Below are positions 3,486-31,607 of a stretch of DNA of 64,000 nt, piece by piece (within the stretch, counting starts at the first letter, position 1; each line of letters opens with the position of its first letter). The stretch is from Escherichia coli (lineage in GTDB: Bacteria > Pseudomonadota > Gammaproteobacteria > Enterobacterales > Enterobacteriaceae). The notes beneath the pieces were generated by a model that made no database searches, was not told where the DNA came from, and saw nothing but the letters and a program-made list of their open reading frames with translations. The position numbers and the translations under genes were made by a program. Where the stretch lies: NCBI RefSeq assembly GCF_011045215.1, contig NZ_CP049201.1; one strand, given 5' to 3'.

Positions 3486-3842
3486 ATGAAATATATATTA
3501 CCAGCTCTTTTTACGGTGTTTTTAACCGCCTGTAGCGCTAACTCATTACATTCGGGGGCGGAACGGGTTCGTGTGACTCATAACGAGCCTGGAAAAGAGT
3601 GTTCGTGGTTAGGCGACATCACTGGCAGCCAGGGCAACTTTTTTACCGGAGGTTGGACCTCGAACAGTAACCTCGAAACAGGCGCGCGGAATGATATGAA
3701 AAATCAGGCCTGGAAAATGGGTGGAAATGTTGTTGTGCTGCTAACGCAACGCGCAGGGCAAACAGGCAGTTCGTACAATGGCAGTGGTTCAAGTCAGCAA
3801 ACTAACGTGACGCTAAGCGGATCGGTCTACCGTTGCCCATAG
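3486..3842 (+). CDS. small lipoprotein
   Basis: Lipobox LTAC after signal peptide; 118 aa; Gly/Ser-rich periplasmic body. Confidence 0.55.
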   Translation: MKYILPALFTVFLTACSANSLHSGAERVRVTHNEPGKECSWLGDITGSQGNFFTGGWTSNSNLETGARNDMKNQAWKMGGNVVVLLTQRAGQTGSSYNGSGSSQQTNVTLSGSVYRCP

Positions 3843-4018
3843 TCTACTATATTTCATTGATGAACAGAGAGCAGATATCAACATTGACGATTGCGGTCTG
3901 CTCTGATTCATAAATGTCATAAAGGAATGATATTTCATTTTTTTGAAGGTTATTATGATAATTTCTTTTATGCCGGAAAATATATCTTATATTACTTGTG
4001 GGTATGTTGTTGTAAGGT

Positions 4019-4594
4019 ATGGATATACATTTTAAAGCACAATCTCCTGAGGCAGTAACGCTCGCCGTGTGGCCAGATAATAATCCTCTGTTCACTGACT
4101 CTCTTGCCCATTTGATCACCGAAATAAACGTAATAAATCGCGTAGAAGATTTTCTTTTCGTCAATTTTTGCATCGATAACTTTATATACTTTATTCATGA
4201 TGAGTGGCTTGAAAAGTTGAACAAGTCAGGCCTGAGGGGGGTGCTGGTTATTGACCGTTTTATGCATTCGCTGGCGAATTATTGGCGTGAAAAACAACAG
4301 GATATTATCTTGTTATCGGTTGGCGATCGGGACCTGACGTCATTTGTATCGGCCCTGAATAGCCTGTCTTATGGACAAAGCAGGGTGCTAGAAGATGTCA
4401 TGCCGATAACAGAAAAAGAAATTTTTGTGTTACGTAAACGCCTCTCCGGTATGTCCGTAAGAAATATCGCACTCACCCTTAATTGCTCGGTTAAAAGTAT
4501 TTATTATTGCCAGTATTCTTTATTAAAAAAATTGAGGCGTTCGTCACGAATAGGCGAGATTTATATCCATCACTCTCACGTGCATGAGACTTAG
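4019..4594 (+). CDS. LuxR/GerE-type HTH transcriptional regulator
   Basis: C-terminal LuxR-type HTH (ITEKEIFVLRKRLSGMSVRNIALTLNCSVKSIYYCQYSLLKKL); AT-rich gene. Confidence 0.55.
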   Translation: MDIHFKAQSPEAVTLAVWPDNNPLFTDSLAHLITEINVINRVEDFLFVNFCIDNFIYFIHDEWLEKLNKSGLRGVLVIDRFMHSLANYWREKQQDIILLSVGDRDLTSFVSALNSLSYGQSRVLEDVMPITEKEIFVLRKRLSGMSVRNIALTLNCSVKSIYYCQYSLLKKLRRSSRIGEIYIHHSHVHET

Positions 4595-4798
4595 TCGTTA
4601 GCCTGTTTTTTCTGGCGGAATGACGGCATAACCCGGAAGGGATATGCCGCCTGCTTCAGCCTATCACGCCATCAACGCAAAAACTCCCCAGCCAAAATAC
4701 TCCCGGCTGTAGGTAACATTACGCATCGGCGCCGCGCTTAACTCTGCCCGAACCTCAAGCGCGAAACCTGATCCTACCCACGTAATATGGACACAGGC

Positions 4799-5665
4799 CT
4801 AAGCGAGGTTCTGGTTTTCAAATTGTTCCGGACTGAGGCCGCCACACCAACTGTGCCGCCGCCACCGATTGTAATCACATTCGATATAATTAAACACCGT
4901 TGCCCGCATTATTTCCCGGCTGATAAAGTGTTCTCCATGGATACATTCCACTTTCAGCGAATGAAAGAAGCTTTCCACGCAGGCATTATCGTAGCAGCAA
5001 CCTTTTGCGCTCATACTTCCACGCAGATTATGCCGCTTCAGTTGCGCCTGATAATCTGCTGAACAGTACTGGCCTCCACGGTCCGTGTGAACGATAACGT
5101 TCCGGGGCCTCTTACGCCGCCACAGCGCCATCTGCAGGGCATCGCAGGCCAGTTGCGCCGTCATGCGTGGCGACATTGACCAGCCAATAACGGCACGTGA
5201 CCACAGGTCAATGACCACTGCCAGATACAGCCAGCCTTCATCTGTACGTAAGTACGTGATGTCTCCTGCCCACTTCTGGTTCGGGCCACTGGCGTAAAAA
5301 TCCTGCTCCAACAGATTTTCTGACACAGGCAGGCCGTGTGCGCGGTAGCTGACCGGGCTGAACTTCCGGGAGGCCTTTGCCCTCAGTCCCTGACGGCGCA
5401 GGCTTGCCGCCACGGTTTTTACGTTAAAGGGGTAACCCTGAGCACGCAGTTCATCCGTCAGGCGTGGGGCACCGTAACGCTGTTTTGACCGGGTAAAAGC
5501 CGCGAGGACAACGCTGTCGCAGTGTTGGCGGAACTGCTGACGCGTGCTTATCCTTGTCCGCCGCTGACACCACGTATACCAGCCGCTGCGGGCCACCCGG
5601 AGCACGCGGCACATTGCTTTGATGCTGAACTCAGCCTGATGTTTTTCAATAAAGACATACTTCAT
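4799..5665 (-). CDS. insF: IS3 transposase OrfB (DDE integrase domain)
   Basis: 288-aa translation matches IS3 InsF as remembered ([24 protein letters not shown]...). Confidence 0.9.
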
Positions 5666-5970
5666 TTCAGGCGCTTCGCGAAGTATGTCGCGGCCTTTTG
5701 GAGGATAGCCAGCTCTTCATCCCGTTCTGCCAGCTGGCGTTTGAGACGTGCAATCTCGGTAGACATCTCCAGTTCACGTTCAGAAGACGTCTGCTGATTT
5801 TGCTGTTTACTGCGCCAGTTGTAGAGCTGTGATTCATACAGGCTGAGTTCACGGGCTGCGGCAGTAACACCGATGCGTTCAGCAAGCTTCAGGGCTTCAC
5901 TGCGAAATTCAGGCGAATGCTGTTTACGGGGTTTTTTACTGGTTGATACTGTTTTTGTCATGTGAGTCAC
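5662..5970 (-). CDS. insE: IS3 transposase OrfA (HTH)
   Basis: Translation [31 protein letters not shown]... matches IS3 InsE as remembered; overlaps orfB as expected for programmed frameshift. Confidence 0.9.
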
Positions 5971-6016
5971 CTCTGACTGAGAGTTTACTCACTTAGCCGC
6001 GTGTCCACTATTGCTG

Positions 6017-6175
6017 GGTAAGATCACATCGCTATTAATATTTTGACGAATGATAAGGTATTCAAGGCAGGGTTAAGACGTAAGATGCGAAAAGCAGCCA
6101 TGGACAGAAACTATCTCGCGTCAGTACTTGCGGGGAACTGGCTTTCGTAATCTTGCCCTGATCCCGATAGCGGTC
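6017..6175 (+). pseudogene. ISAs1-family (H-repeat) transposase 3' fragment
   Basis: Nucleotide similarity to 18355-18490 (catcgctattaatatt...caaggcagg...gactacctcgcgtcag), encodes [20 protein letters not shown]. Confidence 0.6.
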
Positions 6176-6906: not shown

Positions 6907-7191
6907 ATGCCCACAGCAGCCAGACTCAGCGATAAAGGCACCCAGCATGACGGTTATTATGAGACCACCATTATTGCAGGCTCCTCCACCGTCTTTATTG
7001 ATGGTATGCCCGCCGCCCGTCAGGGCGATCCGCTGACACCGCATTCCAAACCTGACCATCCCCCTCACCCCCGTAAAATCGCAGGCGGCTCTGCCACTGT
7101 CTTTATTGACGGTAAACCTGCCGCCAGAACCGGCGATGCCATTGACTGTGGCGGCGTGGTTATCGGTGGCGGCACGGTAAATATAGGCTGA
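6907..7191 (+). CDS. PAAR-domain protein (T6SS spike tip)
   Basis: Two repeats of the PAAR motif (FIDGMPAARQGD, FIDGKPAARTGD), about 95 aa, directly upstream of vgrG. Confidence 0.8.
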   Translation: MPTAARLSDKGTQHDGYYETTIIAGSSTVFIDGMPAARQGDPLTPHSKPDHPPHPRKIAGGSATVFIDGKPAARTGDAIDCGGVVIGGGTVNIG

Positions 7192-7211
7192 TTAATTATC
7201 AGGGAGGCTGT

Positions 7212-9611
7212 ATGCCCTCAGAAGGATTACGTTTCACGCTGTCGGTGGACGGTATCGTGGAGATGGCGACGGCGGTGGTGAGCTTCCGTCTGTACCAGCA
7301 CCACTGCACGCCGTTCATCCTGGATGTGGATATCGCCAGCGGGCTGTCTGACCTGACGGCGGAGGATTTTCTGGAGAAGAGCGCGGTGCTGACGGTCTGG
7401 CAGGGTGATATCCCGCAGCGTTACGTCAGCGGTATCGTGACGGAGGTGCAACTGGGGGAGAACAACGACTGGCAGATGCGTTATTCCCTGAGCATCAGCC
7501 CGCCGCTGTGGCGGGCAGGGTTACGGCAGAACTTCCGTATCTTCCAGCAGCAGGACATCCAGACGATATCAGCACAGCTTCTGAGAGAGAACGGAGTGAC
7601 GGCATGGATGCCGCTGTTTTATGAAGACCATCCGGCGCGGGAGTTCTGTGTGCAGTACGGGGAAAGCGACCTGGCGTTTCTGGCGCGGCTGTGGGCGGAG
7701 GAGGGGATTTTCTTCTTTGAGCGGTTTGCGGCGGACAGTCCGGAGCAGAAGCTGACGCTGTGCGACGATGTGGCGGGGCTGTCACAGGCGGGAGAGCTTC
7801 CGTTTAACCCGGACACATCGGCAGGAGCGGAGACGGAGTGTCTCAGTACGTTCCGTTATGAGGCGCATGTCCGCCCGTCGTCGGTGCAGAGTCAGGATTA
7901 CACGTTTAAGGTGCCGGACTGGCCGGGGATGTATGAGCAGCAGGGTGAGAACCTGAACGGACAGCTGGCGCAGTACGAGATATTTGATTATCCGGGAAGG
8001 TTCAAGGATGAGCAGCACGGCAAGGATTTCACGCTGTACCAGATGGACAGCCTGCGCAGTGATGCGGAAAAGGCCACAGGGCAGAGTAATTCACCGAAGC
8101 TGTGGCCGGGAACGCGGTTTACGCTGACGGGGCATCCGCAGAAGATGCTGAACCGTGAATGGCAGGTGGTACAGAGCATACTGTCAGGAAGCCAGCCGCA
8201 GGCGCTGCACGGCAGCCAGGGGAGGGGAACCACGCTGGGAAATCAGTTAGAGGTGATACCGGCAGACCGGACGTGGCGTCCACGGCTGCAAAGCAAACCG
8301 AAGGTGGACGGGCCGCAGAGTGCCATTGTGACCGGGCCGAAGGGTGAGGAGATATTCTGCGACGAACATGGCCGGGTACGGGTGAAGTTCCACTGGGACC
8401 GTTATCACGGGATGACGGAGGCGAGTTCATGCTGGGTGCGGGTATCGCAGGCGTGGGCGGGGCCGGGGTTCGGTAACCTGGCGATACCGCGGGTGGGCCA
8501 GGAGGTGATTGTTGACTTCCTGAACGGCGACCCGGACCAGCCCATCGTCACGGGACGGACCTACCATGAAGATAACCGCTCCCCGGGCGACCTGCCGGGA
8601 ACGAAGACGCAGATGACGATACGGTCGAAGACCTATAAAGAAAGCGGATTTAACGAGTTGCGGTTTGAAGACGCCACCAGTAATGAGCAGGTGTATATCC
8701 ACGCGCAGAAGAACATGGATACGGAGGTGCTCAACGACCGGACAACGGATGTGAAGCATGACCATACGGAGACCATTGGTAACGACCAGAAGATAACGGT
8801 GGTGAAGGGGCAGACGGTTGAGGTCGGGACCAGAAAAGAAGGAGGCCACGACCAGAGTATCACGGTGGCGAACGACCGGAGCATAACGGTACGTAACGAC
8901 CAGACGCTGAAGGTGACAAATGACCGGACGGTGAGCGTGAGTCACGATGACGGTCTGTACGTCAGAAATGACCGTAGGGTGACGGTGAAAGGGAAGCAGG
9001 AGCATAAGACGACGGGTAACCACATCAGCCTGGTGGAGGGGAAGCACAGCCTGGAGGTGAAGGGGGACCTGGCGGAGAAGGTGAGTGGCGCGCTGGGGAT
9101 AGAAGTGGACGGGGATATCGTGCTGGAGAGCAGCAGCCGGATAAGCCTGAAGGTGGGTGGCTCGTTTATCGTCATTCAGCCGGGCGGAGTGGATATTGCC
9201 GGGCCGAAGATAAACCTGAACGGTGGGGGCAGTGCGGGGACACCGGTGGGGACGATGCAGCCGGCGGTGCTGGAGGCTCCGGAGGATGAGAGCAGTGATG
9301 ATGGCAGTGATGACTCCGGAGAGGATAGTGGCAATCCCGCAGGGAGTGACGGAGGAGGTGATGGCGGTGACGATGAAGATGATCCTGAAAAATATACCCT
9401 CCAGTTCCATTTTACGGACGATGACGGGATACCGTATTCAGAGACGCAGTATATTGCCTTTTTTGAGGATGGCACACAGACGCGTGGTGAAACAGACAGA
9501 GAGGGATATACAGAAATATTTTATACAGATACAGCACAGGAAATTAAAGTCCAATTGTTATTTTCGGATGCTTTTTATATTGAGCCGGAGGGGCATTATG
9601 GCAGGGAATAA
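7212..9611 (+). CDS. vgrG: T6SS spike protein VgrG with acidic linker and C-terminal extension
   Basis: 799 aa; gp27/gp5-like core, beta-helix repeats (NDRT.. repeats), acidic stretch EDESSDDGSDDSGEDSG, then about 70-aa C-terminal tail. Confidence 0.9.
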   Translation: MPSEGLRFTLSVDGIVEMATAVVSFRLYQHHCTPFILDVDIASGLSDLTAEDFLEKSAVLTVWQGDIPQRYVSGIVTEVQLGENNDWQMRYSLSISPPLWRAGLRQNFRIFQQQDIQTISAQLLRENGVTAWMPLFYEDHPAREFCVQYGESDLAFLARLWAEEGIFFFERFAADSPEQKLTLCDDVAGLSQAGELPFNPDTSAGAETECLSTFRYEAHVRPSSVQSQDYTFKVPDWPGMYEQQGENLNGQLAQYEIFDYPGRFKDEQHGKDFTLYQMDSLRSDAEKATGQSNSPKLWPGTRFTLTGHPQKMLNREWQVVQSILSGSQPQALHGSQGRGTTLGNQLEVIPADRTWRPRLQSKPKVDGPQSAIVTGPKGEEIFCDEHGRVRVKFHWDRYHGMTEASSCWVRVSQAWAGPGFGNLAIPRVGQEVIVDFLNGDPDQPIVTGRTYHEDNRSPGDLPGTKTQMTIRSKTYKESGFNELRFEDATSNEQVYIHAQKNMDTEVLNDRTTDVKHDHTETIGNDQKITVVKGQTVEVGTRKEGGHDQSITVANDRSITVRNDQTLKVTNDRTVSVSHDDGLYVRNDRRVTVKGKQEHKTTGNHISLVEGKHSLEVKGDLAEKVSGALGIEVDGDIVLESSSRISLKVGGSFIVIQPGGVDIAGPKINLNGGGSAGTPVGTMQPAVLEAPEDESSDDGSDDSGEDSGNPAGSDGGGDGGDDEDDPEKYTLQFHFTDDDGIPYSETQYIAFFEDGTQTRGETDREGYTEIFYTDTAQEIKVQLLFSDAFYIEPEGHYGRE

Positions 9612-11242: not shown

Positions 11243-11299
11243 TTAAAATGTATCGCAGGTTTTATTTTCTGTAATGCTGGTGCATGTGCGTAAATATTT

Positions 11300-11730
11300 C
11301 TTAAGAGCCGGAAACACCTCTTCCGCCTTTATCGACGATAAACCTACCGCCAGAACCGGTGATGCCATTGACTGCGGTGGCGTGGTTAAAGGTGGAGGGC
11401 GATGTGGTGCTGGAGAGCAGCAGCCGGATAAGCCTGAAGGTGGGCGGCTCGTTTGTGGTCATCCATTCAGGGGGCGTGGACATCGTCGGGCCGAAAATCA
11501 ATCTCAATAGCGGCGGTAGTCCGGGAACGCCGGTGCCGACGCTGCAACCGGCGGTTCTGAAAGCGCTGGCAGATGATAAAAGTTTAGCGGCTGAGCAAAA
11601 TGATAGTAATGCATCGTCCGATCAGAATGATAACAACGATGAGGGTGAGGAAGCGCCAGAAAAATCGGTGTGTAAGGAGTGCCTGAAAAGGGCGCAAGAA
11701 GCCGCCGCCGTTTTTGCGCCTCGTGGATAA
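11300..11730 (+). pseudogene. PAAR 3' fragment fused to vgrG 3' fragment (deletion scar of a second PAAR-vgrG copy)
   Basis: 11310-11398 is near-identical to PAAR 3' end (7090-7180); 11398-11560 near-identical to vgrG 9120-9280; a distinct C-terminal tail follows. Confidence 0.7.
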
Positions 11731-11736
11731 GGGAGA

Positions 11737-12506
11737 ATGACAATGATAACAGTATCGCCACACGCTACCGATCAAGACAAATATATTATCTGGCTGAAGC
11801 AAGCTGAATCATTCTGTTCTGCCGCTGGTTTGGATTACATAGATGTGCTTGTTGACCAGGCTGGAACCGACCAACCTTTGCAAAATGATATGCTTCATCT
11901 GTCGCCAGCCATTCACTGGTATGCCCTGTTTGAAGGAACGCCTGAAGCTGAGACGATGGAGTATTCCCCTGTAGTGTTACGCCTGTACTTTGCGCTCAGT
12001 AGCCATCGCAAATTTCTGGCACAACTGATGGCGTCATTTGCTGATACGCCGCGTCTTACTTTGTTGATATCCCCTCTTACATTCGACCTGCTGGGCGGCA
12101 TCTTCAGGTATTGTCACAGGTTCAGTGGGAAGAACAGACCGGATTGCTGCGTTACTATGATAATCGGGTGTTCCCTTTACTGTTCACACATGTTTTGACT
12201 AACGAGCAGCAGGCGACATTTACTGATATTGCGTTGTTCTGGAGCTGGTTAGACCGTGATGGTGAGATTAACTGGAAATCAGGAAGTTTTTCACCAGAAC
12301 GCAGGCTTACTGACAACCCGGAGATGAATCGGGTGGATGATGTACAGGTGGGATTGATGGGCTGTATCTGCGACGCTGAAGTCCTGATGAAGGAGAAAGC
12401 AGTCAGTGAACTCAGTCAGGAAAGCTATTTTGCCCACTGTCTTGATATTGCTTTCAGGGCCAATGACGCGAAATATTTCGGAGCTTTGCGGGACTTCGAA
12501 GGATAA
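11737..12506 (+). pseudogene. hypothetical T6SS accessory protein (adaptor-like position), apparently frameshifted
   Basis: Two overlapping ORFs (11737-12198, 12111-12506) in different frames, directly after the vgrG tail fragment. Confidence 0.35.
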
Positions 12507-12819: not shown

Positions 12820-13362
12820 ATGTCCAGCAAAATAAGAAATGGAATGAATATAACAAAAGTAGTTAAAGGCTGTCTGGTATTAATTTTGATGGTGATTTCT
12901 GGTTGCTCAGCAGATAATTACGACGATTATACTGCAGGTGATCTCCGGGCAATAAATCATATTAAAGGTATCAGTATTAATTGGTTCACCGTAAATGGTT
13001 ATCGGGTCCATGGTTTGGGCGGTGGATATTGCTGCATAATGTTACCAAAGAAGTGGCATTCTGGATTAAAAGCCCGGATCGAGTGGGAAGTAGACCCGAC
13101 CCCCCTTGAACCTATTGCAATGAAAAAAGAAGGTTTTGGCTATGAAGAAGATGCTTATGCTAAACATGCTGCAAATTATCAAAAATATAAAGTAATTGTT
13201 GACATCCCGGAATACGGCGCTGAACGTTGTGGCCTGACCGTTCATTTTCTGCCGTGTAATCAGATTAAAGTGACAACCGTCTGCGAGGGCTATGGCACAC
13301 CGAATTATCCTATCAAAGAACCCCGCGAGATGAAGGAACCTGCAACATGTCCAGCAAAATAA
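12820..13362 (+). CDS. lipoprotein, candidate Tle1 immunity (Tli-like)
   Basis: Lipobox ISGC after signal peptide; Cys-rich periplasmic domain; 3' end overlaps tle1 start. Confidence 0.5.
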   Translation: MSSKIRNGMNITKVVKGCLVLILMVISGCSADNYDDYTAGDLRAINHIKGISINWFTVNGYRVHGLGGGYCCIMLPKKWHSGLKARIEWEVDPTPLEPIAMKKEGFGYEEDAYAKHAANYQKYKVIVDIPEYGAERCGLTVHFLPCNQIKVTTVCEGYGTPNYPIKEPREMKEPATCPAK

Positions 13363-15440
13363 GTGGTCTGGCTTTTCCGTGTTATGCCCCCCCGGTGTTC
13401 CCTGAAGATGGGCGATTAATATTATCTGAAGCGCAGGTAAACGCGAACTACCTAAAACAAATCAATAAAACAGAAGAGCACAAAACCAACTGTAGTAAAC
13501 AGGCTGGATTTAGAATTGGCTTTACGTGTAATCAAAGTATGCATATTAGTCTGTTTTTTGATGGTACAAATAATAATGAATATAATGACACTCCTGGACA
13601 CCCAACCAATATTGCCAAACTGTTTCATACGACCTATCAGAACGCAGAAGAACAGGGATATTTTAACTACTATATACCGGGTGTAGGCACACCATTTCCC
13701 AAGATAGGTGAAATGGATTACAGCAACAGCGGGCTGGAGTTCGCTACTGGTGGTGAAGATCGAATTAATTGGGCATTATTACGCCTCGTGGATGCCCTGA
13801 GCTATTCCATTGACCCTTCCCATAAGCGACTGGATGATAATGTGGCAAAAGAGCACATTCCTCTTATGCGCGCTCCCTGGCCTATGACTGGTGAAGTGAA
13901 TCGTCGCAATGTGATTAACCCCTACCTGGAAAAATTACAGGGACTGTTAGAGCAAGCCAGTCCGCGCCTGCTAAACGTAAAGCTGTTTATCTACGGATTT
14001 TCCCGTGGCGCAGCGGAAGCACGAACTTTTGTTAACTGGTTGACTCAGTTAGCTTGCCCGCAGGAGCAACAGGTGATGCTGGCCGGGTTAGCTGTCAGTA
14101 TTGAGTTTTTGGGGCTGCTGGATACCGTAGCTTCTGTGGGGGCGGCGCATGTTTTACCGGGCGCTGCCGGTCATATGGGATGGGCCGATAGTACTCAGCA
14201 ACTCCCTGATGAGAGGCAGTTTCCCGGCCTGATTAAATGCTGCCGCCACTTCGTTGCCGCGCATGAGCAGCGGCTGTGCTTTCCGCTGGATTCAATCCGT
14301 CGTCCAGACGGAAATTATCCTTTAAATGCAGAGGAAATTATCTATCCGGGGATGCACTCTGATGTCGGTGGTGGCTATCCCGTTCGCGATCAGGGGAAGT
14401 CCTGTGGTGACTCAGGCGAAATTCTTTCTCAGATAGCACTGCATGATATGTATCTTGCTGCATTTGATTCAGGAGCACCACTTGCTGTTTATTCTAAATT
14501 TGTTACTCCATTAATAAAAGGTGTGTCGCCTCTGCGAATTATGAGTCCTTCTAGCGTAAAGGAATTTACGATTGCTAATTCATTAACAAAACGCTTCAAC
14601 ATCTGGCGACAAACGCTGCTGAACACCACCTTGCAGGGTACAGAAGAAATGATTGATACGAGGGAAGGTTATCACTCCTATCAACTTGCCCAGGTTCTTG
14701 AAAGCGCAATTAGCGATCAGATCGGCTGGATCACCGCCTGGCGTATCGGTCGCTATGCGAATAACAGCCTTCTTGTGCAACCTTTTTATATTAAGGCGCC
14801 ACAGCTGGATAAAGATGGACTTGATAAAGAGGCTAAAGCGCGTAAAGAACAAATGGAAAATATTGAAAAAGAGCGGGCGAACAAGCAGAAAGGGAATGGC
14901 ACACTTGATGAAAGTAATCAGGGCATTCCTATCCTTGACCCAACCAATGCTCAGTATCAGTTGCGAGAGGCAGCCCGAGAATTTCAGAGCGATTATAAAG
15001 GATGGACGCGCGATATTAACGGCAGCGTCATGGAGAAAGCCATTCAGATTCTTGTGGATGTCATTCCTAAATATCCGGTGTATCTGATTAATGGCGATGA
15101 TGAAGCAAAAGAATATCAGCAAATTAAGGCTATGGGAGACGGACTCTATCCACAATTTTTTATTGATTCACTGGGAACGGGAACGCGTACTCAGCCATGC
15201 GCTGAATTACTGGCCCTCTATGATGACCAGGTTCACGACTCCCGCGCCTGGTTTATGCAAAGTTCGCTGGGTGGACGTGAACCCTGGGGCGGTTATTTTC
15301 GCTACCGCATGATTTACTTCGGTGATGAGGCTAATAAAGAGCTGAAGCTAATCTCTGCAGATGGCAAAGTTGTTGGCGATCAGCCCACATCCAACCGGGT
15401 CATTTATTGGATGGAATCGAAAACGGTGAGCCGAGGTTAA
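13347..15440 (+). CDS. tle1: T6SS phospholipase effector, Tle1 family (DUF2235 alpha/beta hydrolase)
   Basis: 697 aa; GxSxG lipase motif in YGFSRGA; located in the vgrG island. Confidence 0.75.
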   Translation: MSSKISGLAFPCYAPPVFPEDGRLILSEAQVNANYLKQINKTEEHKTNCSKQAGFRIGFTCNQSMHISLFFDGTNNNEYNDTPGHPTNIAKLFHTTYQNAEEQGYFNYYIPGVGTPFPKIGEMDYSNSGLEFATGGEDRINWALLRLVDALSYSIDPSHKRLDDNVAKEHIPLMRAPWPMTGEVNRRNVINPYLEKLQGLLEQASPRLLNVKLFIYGFSRGAAEARTFVNWLTQLACPQEQQVMLAGLAVSIEFLGLLDTVASVGAAHVLPGAAGHMGWADSTQQLPDERQFPGLIKCCRHFVAAHEQRLCFPLDSIRRPDGNYPLNAEEIIYPGMHSDVGGGYPVRDQGKSCGDSGEILSQIALHDMYLAAFDSGAPLAVYSKFVTPLIKGVSPLRIMSPSSVKEFTIANSLTKRFNIWRQTLLNTTLQGTEEMIDTREGYHSYQLAQVLESAISDQIGWITAWRIGRYANNSLLVQPFYIKAPQLDKDGLDKEAKARKEQMENIEKERANKQKGNGTLDESNQGIPILDPTNAQYQLREAAREFQSDYKGWTRDINGSVMEKAIQILVDVIPKYPVYLINGDDEAKEYQQIKAMGDGLYPQFFIDSLGTGTRTQPCAELLALYDDQVHDSRAWFMQSSLGGREPWGGYFRYRMIYFGDEANKELKLISADGKVVGDQPTSNRVIYWMESKTVSRG

Positions 15441-16275
15441 GTTCATAAGATTGAGGGGTTGGTGACCGGGAAAATGTAGACATGTAGTGCCTATTCACCC
15501 CAGTTCAAACCCATCCGCATCCCGCCATGCCGGAAACTTCACACTGTACTCCCAGGGAAAAATCACGTAATGCTGTTTTTTTTGTACTAAATAATTCGCA
15601 TTTTATGTTCAATAATTGAGGTGTTCCTTATTACCTAAAGCTGTTTTTCATTGCTTATACATGATCAAATACTCATTGCATAATTAAGGGGGACAAAATG
15701 GAACTTAAAAAATTGATGGAACATATTTCTATTATCCCCGATTACAGGCAAGCCTGGAAAGTGGAACATAAATTGCCAGATATTCTATCTGTTAACTATT
15801 TGCGCCGTTATTTTTGGTGCATAAGGCTGGGAAGATATAGATGATTTGGGGAAACACATCCCGATTTTTTGAAGTGATATGGTGATTTTGAAAATGGTAT
15901 TCCTGTTCACGATATCATTGCCAGAGTTGTATCCTGTATCAGTCCTGCAAAATTTCATGAGTGCTTTATTAACTGGATGCGTGACTGCCATTCCTCAGAT
16001 GATAAAGATGTCATTGCAATTGATGGAAAAACGCTTCGGCACTCTTATGACAAGAGTCGCCGCAAGGGAGCGATTTATGTCATTAAAATCCGTCTTCATA
16101 TTATTTGCGATGTCCCTGATGAACTTATTGATTTCACGTTTGAATGAAAAGGGCTGAAGAAATTATGCATGGCAGTCTCCTTTCGTTCAATAATAACAGA
16201 ACAAAAGAAAGAGCCAGAAATGACGGACAGATATTATAGCATTTCTGCTGATTTAACCGCAGAGAAGTTCGCCAC

Positions 16276-18337
<2,062 letters not shown>

Positions 18338-18648
18338 TTATTTTCAGGGATACGGAACATCGCTATTAATATTTCAAAGAAAGATAAGATACTCAAGGCA
18401 GGGGCAAGATGTAAGATGTGAAAGCAGCTGCGGACAGAGACTACCTCGCGTCAGTCCTTGCGGGGGCGGGCTTTCGTAATCTTACTCTGCAAGGGATGAT
18501 GAAAAGTGCAACTTTATTCCACGCAGCTATTTAGACAGCGTACAGTAAACAAACGAAAGTTGTTATTTCAATGGTCAGGGCAAGAGCATAAAGTGTTTAC
18601 TACACACTATGCTCTTGTCCTGGAGTCAGGTCTTGTTTGGAGGGATAA

Positions 18649-19152
18649 ATGGTAGATATTGTCGAGGCCGATAAAACGGATATTTATTTCATTCAGGAGA
18701 GTGTTTATGGCAAAATCGGGTTGCCAGCTTTTGGTAATACAATAGGACCATCCGCACAGCAGGTTGTTAAAAAGGTATTCGCTGTCGTTAAAGAACGAGA
18801 TAAAACACATGCAAAACAGAGATTATTGTTGGAATATAATGGTAACAAACTCTGGATGAATGCTATTGATGGCAGTGAAGCTATCCTACCAATAGAATTT
18901 TCTAAGCGATACGAACTTTCATTATTCAATACTACTAATTTTGGAGAAGATCCTTTTCCTGATGTTAATTTATATAATAATATGAAATCAAGTTTTTTTG
19001 TAAGGTTTGGTGGAACATCCCATCCCGAGGCTTGGGCTATTTATAATGCAAGTACGAAAGAGGTTAAATATATAGAAACTGCAAGAGAAATTGATAAAAT
19101 ATTCAGTGATTTTAACTTGAGTGGTGCATTGCCAATTCACATTGGTCAATGA
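18649..19152 (+). CDS. hypothetical protein
   Basis: 167-aa ORF in AT-rich DNA between ISAs1 fragments; no recognisable motif. Confidence 0.4.
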   Translation: MVDIVEADKTDIYFIQESVYGKIGLPAFGNTIGPSAQQVVKKVFAVVKERDKTHAKQRLLLEYNGNKLWMNAIDGSEAILPIEFSKRYELSLFNTTNFGEDPFPDVNLYNNMKSSFFVRFGGTSHPEAWAIYNASTKEVKYIETAREIDKIFSDFNLSGALPIHIGQ

Positions 19153-19218
19153 TTTTTTAAATTGTGTGATTAAATAATTGAACATTAATGATGATTTATA
19201 GCATCATTATTCTATAAC

Positions 19219-19731
19219 ATGAATAAACGGATTGAATGTGTTATGTTAAAAATGAGTTTATACGTAATAATATTGTTATTTTCCTTTCAGATTAGTGCAG
19301 CCATTACTAGCAAGGAAAGTGAGGTTGTTTCACCATTATTAATGGATGTTAATTCTTCACTAACAATGGAAAATATTTCTGAATTATCCACATCATCGGA
19401 ACCATCGCAACAGGGGGTATTTCCTGTAATATGTACTCGACTTCATCCTGGTTCCGTAATGAAACGCCAGTTATTAACCGGCTGGGGGCCTGTTTTTATA
19501 ATTGGTGATGATCCTTTTTCTCTGCGCTGGATGAGTGAACATCTGGAGATCCTTAAATCGCTAAATGCCCTTGGTTTGGTTGTTAATGTTGAATCAGTAG
19601 AACGAATGGAGGTATTACAGCAGCGGGCTGATGGGTTATTGTTATTGCCAGTTATCTGCGATAATTTCGTGCAAACTCTGCAATTAAATGCTTATCCGGT
19701 ATTAATCACAGAGATGGAAATATCACAATGA
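19219..19731 (+). CDS. hypothetical exported or membrane protein
   Basis: 170 aa with N-terminal hydrophobic segment (LYVIILLFSFQISAA); AT-rich. Confidence 0.4.
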   Translation: MNKRIECVMLKMSLYVIILLFSFQISAAITSKESEVVSPLLMDVNSSLTMENISELSTSSEPSQQGVFPVICTRLHPGSVMKRQLLTGWGPVFIIGDDPFSLRWMSEHLEILKSLNALGLVVNVESVERMEVLQQRADGLLLLPVICDNFVQTLQLNAYPVLITEMEISQ

Positions 19732-19759
19732 TTAATAACATAATTACTGCAAATAATAT

Positions 19760-19990
19760 TGTAATTTTGAAAATGGTAATCCTGTTCACGACACCATAAT
19801 TAGAGTTATGTCTTGTATCCGTTCAGTATAATTTCACGAGTGCTTTATTAACTGGATGCGTGACTGCCATTCATCAAATGACAAAGACGTCATCGCGATT
19901 GATGGAAAAGCACTTCCACACTCCTATGATAAAAGTGGTCGCAGGAGAGCGGGCTTTCGTAGTCTTCCCCGACTCTCCCCAGCCCTAAAC
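19760..19990 (+). pseudogene. ISAs1-family (H-repeat) transposase internal fragment (yafF-like)
   Basis: Encodes [53 protein letters not shown]; paralogous to 15890-16060. Confidence 0.6.
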
Positions 19991-20004
19991 ACAACCCCCA
20001 CTCA

Positions 20005-20781
20005 CTACAACCTAAACTCATCCGCATCCCGCCATGCCGGAAACTTATCGCGATATTCCCTTAACACCGCCATCGACAGCTCCGCATCAATGCGCGTTGC
20101 CTGATGCGCGTCGGCAGTAGCGATAATCTCGCCTTGCGGATTAATCACCCGGCTGTCACCGCGATAATGGCAGCCGTTGCCATCGCTGCCGACGCGATTG
20201 CATCCCGCCACATACGCCTGATTCTCAATCGCGCGGGCCGTCAGCAATGCCTGCCAGTGCAGAGAGCGCGGAGCAGGCCAGTTGGCGACGTACAGGGCGA
20301 GGTCATAATCGTTGAGATTGCGCGACCACACAGGAAAACGTAAGTCGTAGCACACCAGCGGCAAAATACGCCAGCCGCGCCATTCCACAATCACTCGCGC
20401 ATTGCCCGATTTATAATGTAGATGCTCATCTGCCATGCGGAACAGATGACGCTTATCATAAAAATGTACCGTGCCGCCCGGCTCAACCAGCAAAAAGCGG
20501 TTAACCGAACCAGACTCCGTTTGTAATGCAACACTGCCTGCAATCAGCGCATTGCACTGCTGCGCTTTAGCTGTCATCCAGTTCACTACGTCATTTTGTG
20601 CTAGCGACGAAGCTGCCGCTTCCATGGCAAAGCCGCTGGTAAACATCTCCGGTAGAACGATCACATCGCGCCCGGTAATACCTTCCAGTTGACGATCAAA
20701 ATGACGCAGGTTGGCAGGACCATCCATCCACACCAGTGGTTGCTGCAAAAGCGTAATCTTCAAACCAGGCACGGTGTACAA
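20005..20781 (-). CDS. yafV: omega-amidase / nitrilase-family hydrolase YafV
   Basis: CN-hydrolase family sequence with conserved catalytic region; expected neighbour of ivy and fadE. Confidence 0.9.
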
Positions 20782-28220: not shown

Positions 28221-28718
28221 ATGTCGGAATATCGTCGTTATTACATCAAGGGGGGAACATGGTTTTTCACGGTAAATTTACGGAATCGTCGAAGCCATCT
28301 TCTGACCACCCAGTTCCAGACGCTCCGTAACGCCATTATTAACGTTAGGCGAGACAGACCTTTTGAAATTAACGCCTGGGTCGTTTTGCCGGAGCATATG
28401 CATTGCATATGGACATTACCCGAAAGCGATGATGATTTTTCCTCTCGCTGGCGGGAGATTAAAAAGCAATTCACCCATGCTTGTGGATTGAAAAATATCT
28501 GGCAACCGCGTTTTTGGGAGCATGCCATTCGTAATACAAAAGACTATCGCCATCATGTTGATTATATTTATATAAATCCAGTGAAACATGGTTGGGTAAA
28601 GCAGGTGAGTGATTGGCCATTCTCAACGTTCCATCGCGATGTAGCGCGAGGGTTATATCCCATCAATTGGGCGGGAGACGTTACGGATTTGAGTGCCGGG
28701 GAGCGTATTATTTTATAA
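28221..28718 (+). CDS. rayT: REP-associated tyrosine transposase RayT (IS200/IS605-like HuH)
   Basis: 165 aa, HuH motif region (PEHMHCIW), flanked by REP clusters. Confidence 0.85.
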   Translation: MSEYRRYYIKGGTWFFTVNLRNRRSHLLTTQFQTLRNAIINVRRDRPFEINAWVVLPEHMHCIWTLPESDDDFSSRWREIKKQFTHACGLKNIWQPRFWEHAIRNTKDYRHHVDYIYINPVKHGWVKQVSDWPFSTFHRDVARGLYPINWAGDVTDLSAGERIIL

Positions 28719-28719
28719 T

Positions 28720-29135
<416 letters not shown>

Positions 29136-29137
29136 TC

Positions 29138-30850
29138 TTACATCAACGCCCCCATAATCTTCAACTCCAGCTCGTCCGGCACTTCATTATACGACAGCAC
29201 ATGCAGTCCCGGCGCAAACAATCTCGCATAGCGCGCCAGCAAAGGGCGAAGCTGCGGCGGCACCAGCAGCACCGGGTCTTTCCCCGCCGCTTTCATCTGC
29301 TCTTTTACCTGCGGCATCGTGTTCTGGAACTGGTTGAGCATATTCGGGTCGACCGGCACGCTGTCGAGCATCACTTTCCCGCCCTGTTGCGCCTGATTCA
29401 CCACGTTGGTCAGCAGATTTTCCAGCTCATTATTCAGCGTATACACCGTCAGCTCCTGCTTGCGAACAAACGGATGGGTAATGCTGCGCCGCAGCGCCAG
29501 GCGCACATCGGCTGCCAGCAGAATATGATCTTTGGTCACCGCGCTACTGGCGACCAGCACGGTGGCGATGGTGACGATATCGCGCAGGGAAACGCCTTCA
29601 GTCAGCAGCGCCCGGTACACTTTCAGCAACTGGCTGTAATTGAGCGCCGCGCTTAAATCCTCCGCCAGGCGCGGTGCCATCGACGACAAACGATTATGCA
29701 ACTGCGTAATATCATCATAGTTAAACAAATCAGGAATATAGCTACGCACAATCTTATTCACATGGGTGGCAATCACGCTGGCGCTGTCGATCACCTGATA
29801 CCCCATATTCAGCGCCTTCGCTTTCTGCGCGGGCTGGATCCAGGTCACCGGCATCCCATACGCCGGGTCGTTCCCCAGCACGCCGTCTATCTCGCCGTAG
29901 GTTTCGCTGGAGGGCAGGGCCATCAGTTTATCCGCCGGAATATCCGCTTCATCAGCCTTTATGCCGTTGATGAAAATGGCGTACTGGCTGGGCTTAAGGC
30001 GGAAGTTTTCCCGAATGCGGATCTCCGGCAGCAGCACGCCGTTGCCGTCGGATATCACCTGCCGCACGCCGCGAATCCGCTGGGTGAGCGGGTTGCCCTG
30101 TGCTTTATCGACCAGCGCCACCAGCTTGTAACCGAGGCTTAAACTGATAGGCTCAATCAGCGGTATCGTTTCCCAACTGACCTGCTGCTCGCTGGTTTCG
30201 GTGATGGTGCGGGTCAGCGTTTCGAGGCTTTTCTCTTCCGCCTCCGCCGCCTGCGGGCGTTTGCTCATCCGCCAGCCGGTAAAGCCAAGCAGGGCGCTGA
30301 ACAGCAAAAATGGCAGGTGCGGCATTCCCGGCACCACCGCCAGCACGAACATAATTCCGGTGGCGGTGTAGAGCACCGACGGGCTCGCCAGCAACTGGTG
30401 GCGCACGTCATGGGCGATATCGCCGTTGTCGCTGACGCGGGTAACGATAATCGCCGCCGCGGTGGAAAGCAGCAGGGAAGGGATCTGCGCCACCAGCCCG
30501 TCGCCGATGGTCATCAGCACATACTGCTGGAAGGCGGCATCGGCGCTCAGGTTGTATTTAAATATCCCGATACAGACGCCGCCGATCAGGTTGATGGCCA
30601 GAATCATCATCCCGGCGATGGCATCCCCGCGCACAAACTTCGATGCCCCGTCCATCGCGCCGTAGAAATCGGCCTCGCTGGCGACATCTTTACGCCGGGT
30701 TTGCGCCTGCGCCTGGTTGATCAACCCGGCGTTAAGATCGGCGTCAATCGCCATCTGCTTGCCGGGCATCGCGTCCAGGGTGAAGCGGGCAGAAACCTCG
30801 GAAATACGCTCGGCCCCTTTGGTGACGACGATAAAGTTGATTGTAAACAG
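29138..30850 (-). pseudogene. lfhA: FlhA-like flagellar export protein fragment (Flag-2 locus remnant lfhA)
   Basis: FlhA cytoplasmic and C-terminal TM region (FTLDAMPGKQMAIDADLNAGLI...), N-terminal about 110 aa missing; the 5' part of the long ORF is antisense of lafU. Confidence 0.75.
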
Positions 30851-31607
30851 CGTCAGTAAATCCGAGCGTGAAAGCATTATCGCCGCGCTGCACGGGCAGT
30901 CGATTTTCAACGGTGGCGGGCTGTCGCCGTTAAATAAAATCAGTCCGACGCATCCGCCGAAACCTGCCACCGTGGCGGTGCCGGAAGAGACGGAGAAAAA
31001 AGTGCGCGACGTCAACGAGAAAACGGCGCTGCTGAAGAAGAAATCCGCCACCGAGCTTGGCGAGCTGGCAACCAGTATCAACACCATCGCCCGTGATGCG
31101 CATATGGAAGCGAATCTGGAGATGGAGATTGTCCCGCAGGGATTACGCGTGCTGATTAAAGACGACCAGAACCGCAATATGTTTGAACGCGGCAGCGCGA
31201 AGATTATGCCGTTCTTTAAAACGCTGCTGGTGGAGTTAGCGCCAGTGTTCGACTCGCTCGATAACAAAATTATTATTACCGGGCATACCGATGCGATGGC
31301 CTACAAAAACAATATCTACAACAACTGGAACCTTTCGGGTGACCGCGCGCTTTCGGCTCGTCGGGTGCTGGAAGAGGCCGGAATGCCGGAAGATAAAGTG
31401 ATGCAGGTAAGCGCAATGGCGGATCAGATGCTGCTGGACGCCAAAAATCCGCAAAGCGCGGGCAACCGGCGCATTGAGATTATGGTGCTGACTAAAAGCG
31501 CGTCCGATACGCTGTATCAATACTTTGGTCAGCATGGAGATAAAGTGGTGCAGCCGCTGGTGCAAAAGCTGGATAAGCAGCAGGTGCTTTCACAACGAAC
31601 GCGCTAA
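30850..31607 (+). pseudogene. lafU: MotB-like protein fragment with OmpA-like C-terminal domain (Flag-2 remnant lafU/mbhA)
   Basis: OmpA/MotB peptidoglycan-binding motif (ITGHTDAMAY...NWNLSGDRALSARRVL), lacks N-terminal TM region. Confidence 0.7.

Follow-up and report, generated by a model that had tools for sequence, protein, structure and literature searches.

Small cargo effectors of type VI secretion systems (T6SSs) that depend on Hcp, such as those of the Tae/Tai pairs and Ssp1 and Ssp2 of Serratia, are smaller than 20 kDa and carry no signal peptide; they are encoded in or near T6SS and hcp genes, and the next gene on the same strand encodes an exported protein. In the pore-forming Ssp4-Sip4 family of Serratia, small cassettes are found in housekeeping loci, sometimes beside hcp or vgrG or within T6SS clusters, the immunity protein is an inner-membrane protein with four transmembrane (TM) helices, and cargo effectors such as Ssp4 are usually not linked to T6SS genes (PMC12669606). 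A third family of relevance here is DUF2859 (PF11072; TIGR03765, PFL_4695), a component of integrating conjugative elements (ICEs), for which no paper or solved structure gives a function. Here we describe two adjacent open reading frames, ORF1 and ORF2, in Escherichia (E.) coli DNA at the yafV-ivy-fadE-gmhA locus; the window, i.e., the whole stretch that was analyzed, comprises 64,000 nucleotides. The reading that we favor, tentatively and with a confidence that falls a little short of even, is that the pair encodes an Hcp-sized T6SS cargo effector and a periplasmic immunity protein, and that it was stranded by the activity of insertion sequences (ISs). This reading is drawn from gene content and sequence comparison. 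The genes and the segments of the second protein are the following.

18649..19152, + strand: ORF1, candidate T6SS cargo effector, short form of a family of ~190 amino acids (aa) (ORF call, substitution ratios, AlphaFold2 model)
19243..19731, + strand: ORF2, exported DUF2859/TIGR03765 protein, candidate periplasmic immunity partner (hidden Markov model (HMM) match, start of homologues)
19243..19299, + strand: signal peptide (Sec type) predicted for ORF2, MLKMSLYVIILLFSFQISA, with cleavage probably after ISA (read from the sequence, alignment)
19417..19728, + strand: DUF2859/TIGR03765 core domain of ORF2, with two clade-specific Cys (HMM match, alignment)

Two co-inherited genes and their products

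Both ORFs are genuine genes. The initial annotation of this DNA had reported ORFs of 167 and 170 aa, and the ORF list bears out the coordinates, with ORF1 at 18649-19152 and ORF2 at 19219-19731, both on the + strand. The 170-aa form of ORF2 is that obtained with the upstream ATG at 19219; the true start is most likely at 19243, which yields 162 aa, because an MLK start is common to most aligned homologues and is also the RefSeq start. A GGAGG Shine-Dalgarno sequence precedes the ATG of ORF1. In three alleles the gap between the two genes measures 27-90 nt and contains nothing that resembles a terminator, and ORF2 has the position of an immunity gene, i.e., it is found on the same strand, directly downstream of ORF1 and is inherited together with it. 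The DNA had been described as far more AT-rich than the core genes, which is correct: the GC content is 0.30-0.39 over 18.6-19.8 kb vs 0.50-0.59 in yafV and fadE, and at third codon positions it is 0.26 in ORF1 and 0.32 in ORF2. A 20-nt stretch that is 85% identical in ORF1 (18941-18960, GEDPFP) and ORF2 (19502-19521, GDDPFS) is probably a chance match.

Intact copies of the pair are carried by 541 of the 5,426 complete E. coli genomes (~10%), where presence was defined as a match to the 1.5-kb region at an identity of at least 95% and a coverage of at least 80%. Carriers include the extraintestinal pathogens UTI89, 536 and an APEC O1:K1:H7 strain. The pair is also found in E. whittamii and in one further enterobacterial genus, and ORF1 is practically never found without ORF2 (547 vs 541 genomes). 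Homology to K-12 or housekeeping genes, which the initial annotation had named as grounds for refutation, was not found: K-12 has no homologue of either ORF (ykfM, yafU and yafF were compared).

A second E. coli allele, found at locus L002 and in strain ET350, displays amino-acid identities of 67% for ORF1 and 74% for ORF2, while the version from the other enterobacterial genus (L006/L007) is 59% and 49% identical, respectively, with a yafV that is 77% identical in DNA. Against these two divergent alleles, the ratio of nonsynonymous to synonymous substitution rates (dN/dS, Nei-Gojobori) is 0.20-0.32 for ORF1, 0.28-0.34 for ORF2 and 0.17-0.27 for the domain part of ORF2 alone. The dS values of ORF1 and ORF2 match (0.56/0.39 and 1.44/1.32), and the two genes have therefore travelled together; they are co-inherited and are co-diverging under purifying selection. 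Within the species the allelic divergence is deep: the pair is 76% identical in DNA while its flank is 98.6% identical, and at a further locus (L016) the upstream genes are 86-94% identical to those of the ET350 type, with a DUF2859 gene product that is only 48% identical. A single species thus harbors at least three deeply diverged cassette alleles behind near-identical flanks, which is a pattern typical of effector-immunity loci.

ORF1 is a protein of 18.9 kDa with a pI of 5.6, zero Cys and no signal peptide, and it is not matched by any Pfam, NCBIfam, PHROG or PADLOC model. A word-indexed homology search returned only E. coli proteins, and an exhaustive HMM search was needed to define the family; this profile search of 1.84 billion representatives yielded 42 ORF1-family proteins. 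The initial annotation had referred to both ORFs as orphans without recognizable motifs. ORF1 has no Pfam or NCBIfam match, but it is a member of this small, unnamed family and hence not an orphan; the lack of motifs does not hold for ORF2 (see below). Full-length relatives are mostly ~190 aa long and 24-38% identical, and they share an N-terminal motif, Y.I.E.I..K.GLP.LGNT.GPS..Q, and a C-terminal motif, G.DP.P...LY.N...F...GG...PTA.A.YN..T. The named members are from Serratia, Pantoea, Morganella and Rahnella, and every one is annotated as “hypothetical protein”. The short form of Escherichia lacks an insert, a hairpin of ~30 aa, that is found between the second and third strands of the long form, and it is acidic (pI 5.2-5.6) vs the basic long forms (pI ~9.2). 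Truncated variants of both ORF1 and ORF2 are common in databases.

An AlphaFold2 model of ORF1 obtained from a 31-sequence alignment has a predicted local distance difference test (pLDDT) score of 89.2 (44.5 only with 3 sequences) and displays a beta-rich predicted fold. Two candidate identities were rejected. ORF1 is not an Hcp, as there is neither a PF05638 match nor an Hcp beta-barrel fold. The idea of a lysozyme or SLT-like enzyme arose because DUF2859 adjoins an SLT-like gene in ICEs; ORF1 has no sequence similarity to such enzymes, and its predicted fold is beta-rich. A search of ORF1 and 31 family members for delivery or toxin marker domains (PAAR, MIX, Rhs, DUF4150 and known toxin Pfam families) returned none.

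ORF2 matches PF11072 (DUF2859) with an E value of 2e-28 and 99.5 bits vs a cut-off of 25, and TIGR03765 (PFL_4695) with 120.6 bits vs a cut-off of 59.75; in the 170-aa form the matches cover residues 59-167 and 67-170, respectively. The hydrophobic N-terminus pointed out by the initial annotation is a Sec-type signal, followed by A, and it precedes a variable Ser/Thr/Glu-rich linker and a domain of ~105 aa. By inspection and alignment, a predicted signal peptide in this layout is present in every aligned homologue.

Scores so far above the cut-offs might suggest that the pair is a remnant of an ICE, which is what its RefSeq label, “integrating conjugative element protein”, implies. Genuine ICEs of Citrobacter and Salmonella do harbor a homologue that is 43-49% identical to ORF2, and there the order is an SLT-like gene, DUF2859, the TraD/TraG coupling protein and the remaining type IV secretion system (T4SS) module. 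The systems that carry this family, of the PAPI-1/ICEclc type, we take to be of the MPF-G class. However, no other ICE or T4SS gene was found around the pair in the window, in strain A30 or in ET350, no ORF1 relative was found in the ICE loci, and the two genes stay together in different genera. In a neighbor-joining tree of the domain, the T6SS-linked copies (window, L002, L006 and L016) cluster apart from the ICE copies; they lack the segment ADLGG.S..PLF, which follows the signal peptide in the aligned enterobacterial ICE copies, and three of the four contain two Cys that the ICE copies do not have. Origin of the pair as an ICE remnant is therefore scarcely credible. Judged by its sequence, ORF2 is a member of the domain family and not an ICE component at this locus, and the product name is misleading.

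A cassette at the end of T6SS effector islands

The pair is found at the end of an island of T6SS genes, the landmarks of which are listed here.

6907..9611, + strand: PAAR (6907-7188) and VgrG (7212-9611) genes, head of the effector island that ends at the pair
13347..15440, + strand: Tle1-family T6SS phospholipase effector, final vgrG-island gene ahead of the IS block
20005-20781, - strand: yafV, core gene that bounds the island

The order in the window is PAAR, VgrG, M35, VgrG', DUF4123, DUF3304, Tle1, the IS block, the pair and yafV, where the DUF4123 gene is preceded by remnants of a PAAR-like gene (11283-11414) and of vgrG (11386-11586). In strain A30 the pair is preceded by a full T6SS cluster that extends from aspV to yafV. 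In ET350 the pair follows a Tse7-like array composed of VgrG, DUF6484, DUF2169, a KAS-like gene and DUF4150/HNH toxins, each toxin with an immunity gene of ~330 codons, after which there is an orphan immunity paralogue (58% and 29% identical); directly upstream of the ORF1-ORF2 cassette there are genes for a HEAT protein that resembles TIGR02270 and for a thioredoxin-like protein with WCxxC. This cluster, presumably of the P. aeruginosa vgrG1b type, is found at 1164-16646 of L022 (E. coli ET350), at 6931-9576 of L002 and at 706-4100 of L015. E. whittamii has the same three upstream genes as the ET350 type, then ISAs1, then a pair of the window type; in a scan of genome contigs with a close trio of sequences this was the only species seen. 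At L006, in the other genus, the pair follows a PAAR gene and an N-terminal vgrG remnant, with no IS.

In four settings (the window, ET350, E. whittamii and another genus) the pair is thus the last cassette of a T6SS effector island, which supports the assignment as effector and immunity genes, and the molecular mass of ORF1 suits a cargo of Hcp. Including relatives of ORF1 in two further loci (L008 and L013, see below), linkage of the family to T6SS genes was seen in the window, A30, ET350, L006, L008 and L013. The context, together with the IS rearrangements, also lends partial support to the proposal of the initial annotation, a toxin-immunity or effector-immunity pair stranded by IS activity; its premise of missing motifs is wrong for ORF2.

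The mechanism that we envisage is as follows. ORF1 would be a cytoplasmic protein, small enough to travel inside the Hcp tube, that the T6SS fires into neighboring bacteria, where it may act on the envelope, i.e., in the periplasm or at the inner membrane. The signal peptide would export ORF2 to the periplasm of the producer, where it could bind and neutralize ORF1 that is incoming or self-delivered. The fold of ORF2 was presumably recruited from the DUF2859/PFL_4695 component of ICE conjugation systems, with loss of the N-terminal motif of the ICE proteins, and rearrangement of the island by ISAs1 and IS21-family elements would have stranded the cassette next to yafV. Secretion, toxicity, target compartment and immunity role are all inferred here.

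Two observations concern the surroundings of these islands. In L002 (strain of accession OU349849), yciG/yciF/yciE-like and Mn-catalase genes are found at 3813-6026, just upstream of the ET350-type module; one Mn-catalase, KatN of enterohemorrhagic E. coli, is reported to be a substrate of the T6SS (PMC5363993). In the window, the segment 1-7200 upstream of PAAR-VgrG contains an IS3 element, a third ISAs1 end fragment (6025-6160), winged-helix-turn-helix and LuxR regulators, and an Ail/Lom outer-membrane protein, an arrangement found in one complete genome only, PapRG-06-5, at 99.9% identity.

The DNA on both sides of the pair contains ISAs1 sequence, as stated in the initial annotation, which placed the pair between H-repeat remnants next to yafV. 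The features are:

15490..15553, no strand: 64-nt copy of the yafV 3'-end junction (19997-20060), 77% identical, just left of the left ISAs1 copy
15553..16275, + strand: left ISAs1 (H-repeat) copy, 5' part, pseudogenized; compared with an intact copy, 312 bp are missing internally
16276..18229, - strand: IS21-family element of 1,954 bp with terminal inverted repeats, inserted in the left ISAs1 copy
16342-17124, - strand: istB of the IS21-family element (E 7.6e-112)
17121-18143, - strand: istA of the IS21-family element (rve domain)
18230..18489, + strand: left ISAs1 copy, 3' part
18576..18622, no strand: 21-nt inverted repeat with a 5-nt loop, 86% complementary, 27 nt upstream of the ORF1 start
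19751..19951, + strand: internal 201-nt fragment of ISAs1 on the right side, with 82% identity to 15872-16072

The IS21-family element, which presumably resembles IS100, is flanked by a target duplication, GCCAC, at 16271-16275 and 18230-18234, and it is absent from strain A30, which is otherwise 96-98% identical. The 64-nt repeat, probably a trace of the rearrangement by which the cassette came to adjoin Tle1, suggests that yafV was formerly the neighbor of Tle1 and that the block of ISAs1 and the pair recombined in later. Relative to the pair, ISAs1 is on the left side in the window and E. whittamii and on the right side in ET350, and it is absent at L006. This difference in placement points to ISAs1-mediated recombination that probably exchanged the internal effector modules and kept the terminal cassette. 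Homology to the ET350-type allele starts within the right arm of the inverted repeat at 18576-18622.

A small, AT-rich two-gene cassette between IS copies of the same orientation could also be a cytoplasmic toxin-antitoxin pair, or an abortive-infection defense pair, carried as cargo of ISAs1. However, ORF2 carries an export signal and would not be a cytoplasmic antitoxin, no PADLOC model matches, the flanking IS copies are broken, and in another genus the cassette occurs without any IS. This origin is very improbable. For similar reasons a composite ISAs1 transposon was rejected, as the left copy is deleted and split, the right one is an internal fragment, and the pair also occurs with one IS (ET350) or none (L006); likewise a phage-defense system, for which there was no PADLOC match. 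The IS elements are incidental to the function of the cassette.

Further from the pair, a tandem array of 3.9 copies of a 101-bp unit of the repetitive extragenic palindromic (REP) type is found at 28747-29135, just downstream of rayT (28221-28718), the gene for a REP-associated tyrosine transposase. On the - strand at 29138-31267 there is a 709-aa ORF where related strains have an annotated flhA, followed by flhB and fliR; the DNA past 29 kb may therefore contain the second (lateral) flagellar cluster.

Relatives of ORF1 and arguments against a secreted effector

Relatives of ORF1 are accompanied by other partner genes. In the same-strand cassettes that were examined, the next gene always encodes an envelope protein. 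For the long form this partner is a protein of 135-149 aa that is predicted to span the membrane four times, and the stop codon of the first gene often overlaps the start codon of the second, while for the Escherichia type (window, L002, L006 and L016) it is the exported DUF2859 protein. An exception is L008, where the sole four-TM ORF is on the opposite strand. At L016 a truncated long-form ORF1 (HMM E 3.8e-12) is paired with DUF2859, and a long-form ORF1 was therefore once also paired with this family. In a large group of long-form loci (L012, L017, L018, L020, L021 and L025-L043) the cassette contains three genes, for a basic protein of ~190 aa, the four-TM protein and a DUF805 protein, and it is inserted at differing housekeeping sites in Serratia, Pantoea and unnamed taxa. 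The DUF805 gene is found ~400 nt downstream of the ORF1-family gene in 17 of the 19 loci from metagenomes, the exceptions being truncated loci. Four further loci resemble those from metagenomes, and one in Pantoea (L020) has a separate Tlde1-Hcp islet ~3.5 kb upstream.

These relatives provide a good part of the evidence that weighs against the reading as effector and immunity protein, which is gathered in this paragraph and the next. At all 19 metagenome loci of the long form an ORF1-family or DUF805 gene is present, and comparison with a limited reference set revealed no T6SS gene within 7 kb; most other long-form loci, in Serratia, Pantoea, Morganella and unnamed taxa, also stand alone with no T6SS link. 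The long-form cassette looks like a self-contained module, and its conserved third gene, encoding DUF805, is unexplained by a simple effector-immunity model. The proteins themselves offer little guidance: no motif indicates toxicity of ORF1, its predicted fold has no match in the PDB and no catalytic fold was recognized, the conserved charged residues of the family are one Glu and one Asp only, Glu17 and Asp101, and the short, acidic E. coli form may differ in activity from the long forms. To our knowledge, no immunity role has been described for DUF2859.

The remaining points concern the absence or decay of genes. The window shows no T6SS core genes, and an internal stop codon interrupts the tssH of strain A30. 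The DUF4123 gene (11743-12503), an adaptor for Tle1, is split into two frames near 12093-12096 in the window; it is intact in A30. About 200 E. coli genomes hold ORF2 without ORF1, and all 16 that were sampled have a common breakpoint (window position 19197) and a 1-nt deletion, with an annotated fragment of 66 aa; in one of these ORF2-only strains, 13P477T, an island with a type I secretion system and RTX genes replaces the T6SS island. The ORF2-only genomes carry one decayed, frameshifted relic and not a maintained orphan immunity gene; intact orphan copies of ORF2 were not found among the 16.

From the above discussion, an obvious alternative is a self-contained module with no role in type VI secretion, in which a soluble ORF1-family protein operates with small membrane or periplasmic proteins; only now and then would it have been acquired by T6SS islands, where foreign AT-rich DNA tends to accumulate. 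The conserved three-gene cassette, the lack of T6SS genes within 6-7 kb in 19 of 19 metagenome loci and in most of the other loci, and the lack of any effector marker domain are all consistent with such a module; in addition, the T6SS secretome table of Serratia Db10 does not list a 21.9-kDa protein of this kind, where the presence of the gene in Db10 is not established. However, at L008 a long-form member starts 16 nt past an orphan hcp, in an islet between housekeeping genes, and at L013 one is found directly after tssC, where it heads an array of signal-peptide, amidase-like and glycine-zipper proteins that precedes tagJ and tssE; these positions, the latter inside an effector-immunity array, are hard to attribute to chance. 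The pair is also kept at the end of a T6SS island in two genera, no PADLOC defense model matches, and established cargo effectors such as Ssp4 share the habit of being unlinked (PMC12669606). We consider a module of this kind to be a serious, though rather unlikely, explanation.

A further alternative is that E. coli carries a disarmed relic, i.e., an effector that was inactivated by the deletion that gave rise to the short form, in a cassette that is slowly decaying. The missing hairpin insert, the many truncated variants of ORF1 and ORF2 in databases, the lineage that lacks ORF1 and has a frameshifted ORF2, and the decaying neighbors (the DUF4123 adaptor and the vgrG fragment) would all fit. 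The three short-form alleles are nevertheless intact, and dN/dS of 0.20-0.32 over dS values of up to 1.4 indicates long-term purifying selection after loss of the insert; the pair is, moreover, intact in 541 genomes. A relic is therefore an improbable account of the cassette.

Significance and comparison with known systems

If the pair does encode an effector and an immunity protein, it would be of a well-known kind, and what is new would be a fold without a solved relative and an immunity protein derived from conjugation. The T6SS arsenal of E. coli would then include a new effector family whose fold is not represented in the PDB, DUF2859, a conserved and unstudied protein of conjugation systems, would gain a first functional handle, and a component of type IV secretion would have been reused in type VI warfare. 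A broader proposal, which we consider possible but doubtful, is that ORF1 is the founder of a family of small, envelope-targeting T6SS cargo effectors with a novel structure, for which there are two unrelated immunity solutions, i.e., a four-TM inner-membrane protein and a periplasmic DUF2859 protein co-opted from conjugation. In that case the DUF2859/PFL_4695 core protein of ICE T4SSs would be a periplasmic protein-binding or inhibitor module, possibly one that restrains the adjacent SLT-like enzyme. If, instead, the pair has no such role, the cassettes composed of a ~190-aa protein and a membrane protein still constitute a module that is conserved across Serratia, Pantoea, Morganella and Escherichia and calls for an explanation. 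About a tenth of sequenced E. coli carry the pair, including the extraintestinal pathogens named above, where the genes are labeled “hypothetical protein” and, misleadingly, “integrating conjugative element protein”.

Of the known systems, the small Hcp-dependent effectors (Tae/Tai and Ssp1/Ssp2) share with the pair each of the features given at the outset, i.e., a mass of less than 20 kDa, no signal peptide, the gene of an exported protein next on the same strand, and a position in or near T6SS and hcp genes. Unlike these effectors, ORF1 has no Cys and the family no invariant His, which means that it is not a Cys-His amidase, and it displays no similarity in sequence or fold to any solved effector. 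The Ssp4-Sip4 family resembles the long-form cassettes both in its scattered location and in the four-TM immunity protein. In contrast, Ssp4 is a 35.5-kDa protein with 13 alpha-helices, while the members of the ORF1 family are ~19-22 kDa and predicted to be beta-rich, and the partner in E. coli is a soluble exported DUF2859 protein, not a membrane protein. Identity of ORF1 with Ssp4 was rejected on account of this size and helical fold, and identity with Ssp3/Tfe1 was rejected by description, as Tfe1 has a mass of 20.6 kDa and a partner gene that is found upstream.

The DUF2859 proteins of ICEs are similar to ORF2, which is a clear member of that family and carries a signal peptide. ORF2 differs in that it is not encoded beside a coupling protein or T4SS gene, lacks the ADLGG..PLF segment and has clade-specific Cys; its clade is separate and always paired with an ORF1-family gene. 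Finally, orphan toxin and immunity modules at the ends of Rhs/vgrG islands with H-repeats resemble the present locus in that the cassette is found at the end of an array near ISAs1, among orphan immunity genes and fragments. Unlike these modules, the locus contains neither an Rhs core nor a C-terminal toxin fragment, and ORF1 is a complete, stand-alone gene.

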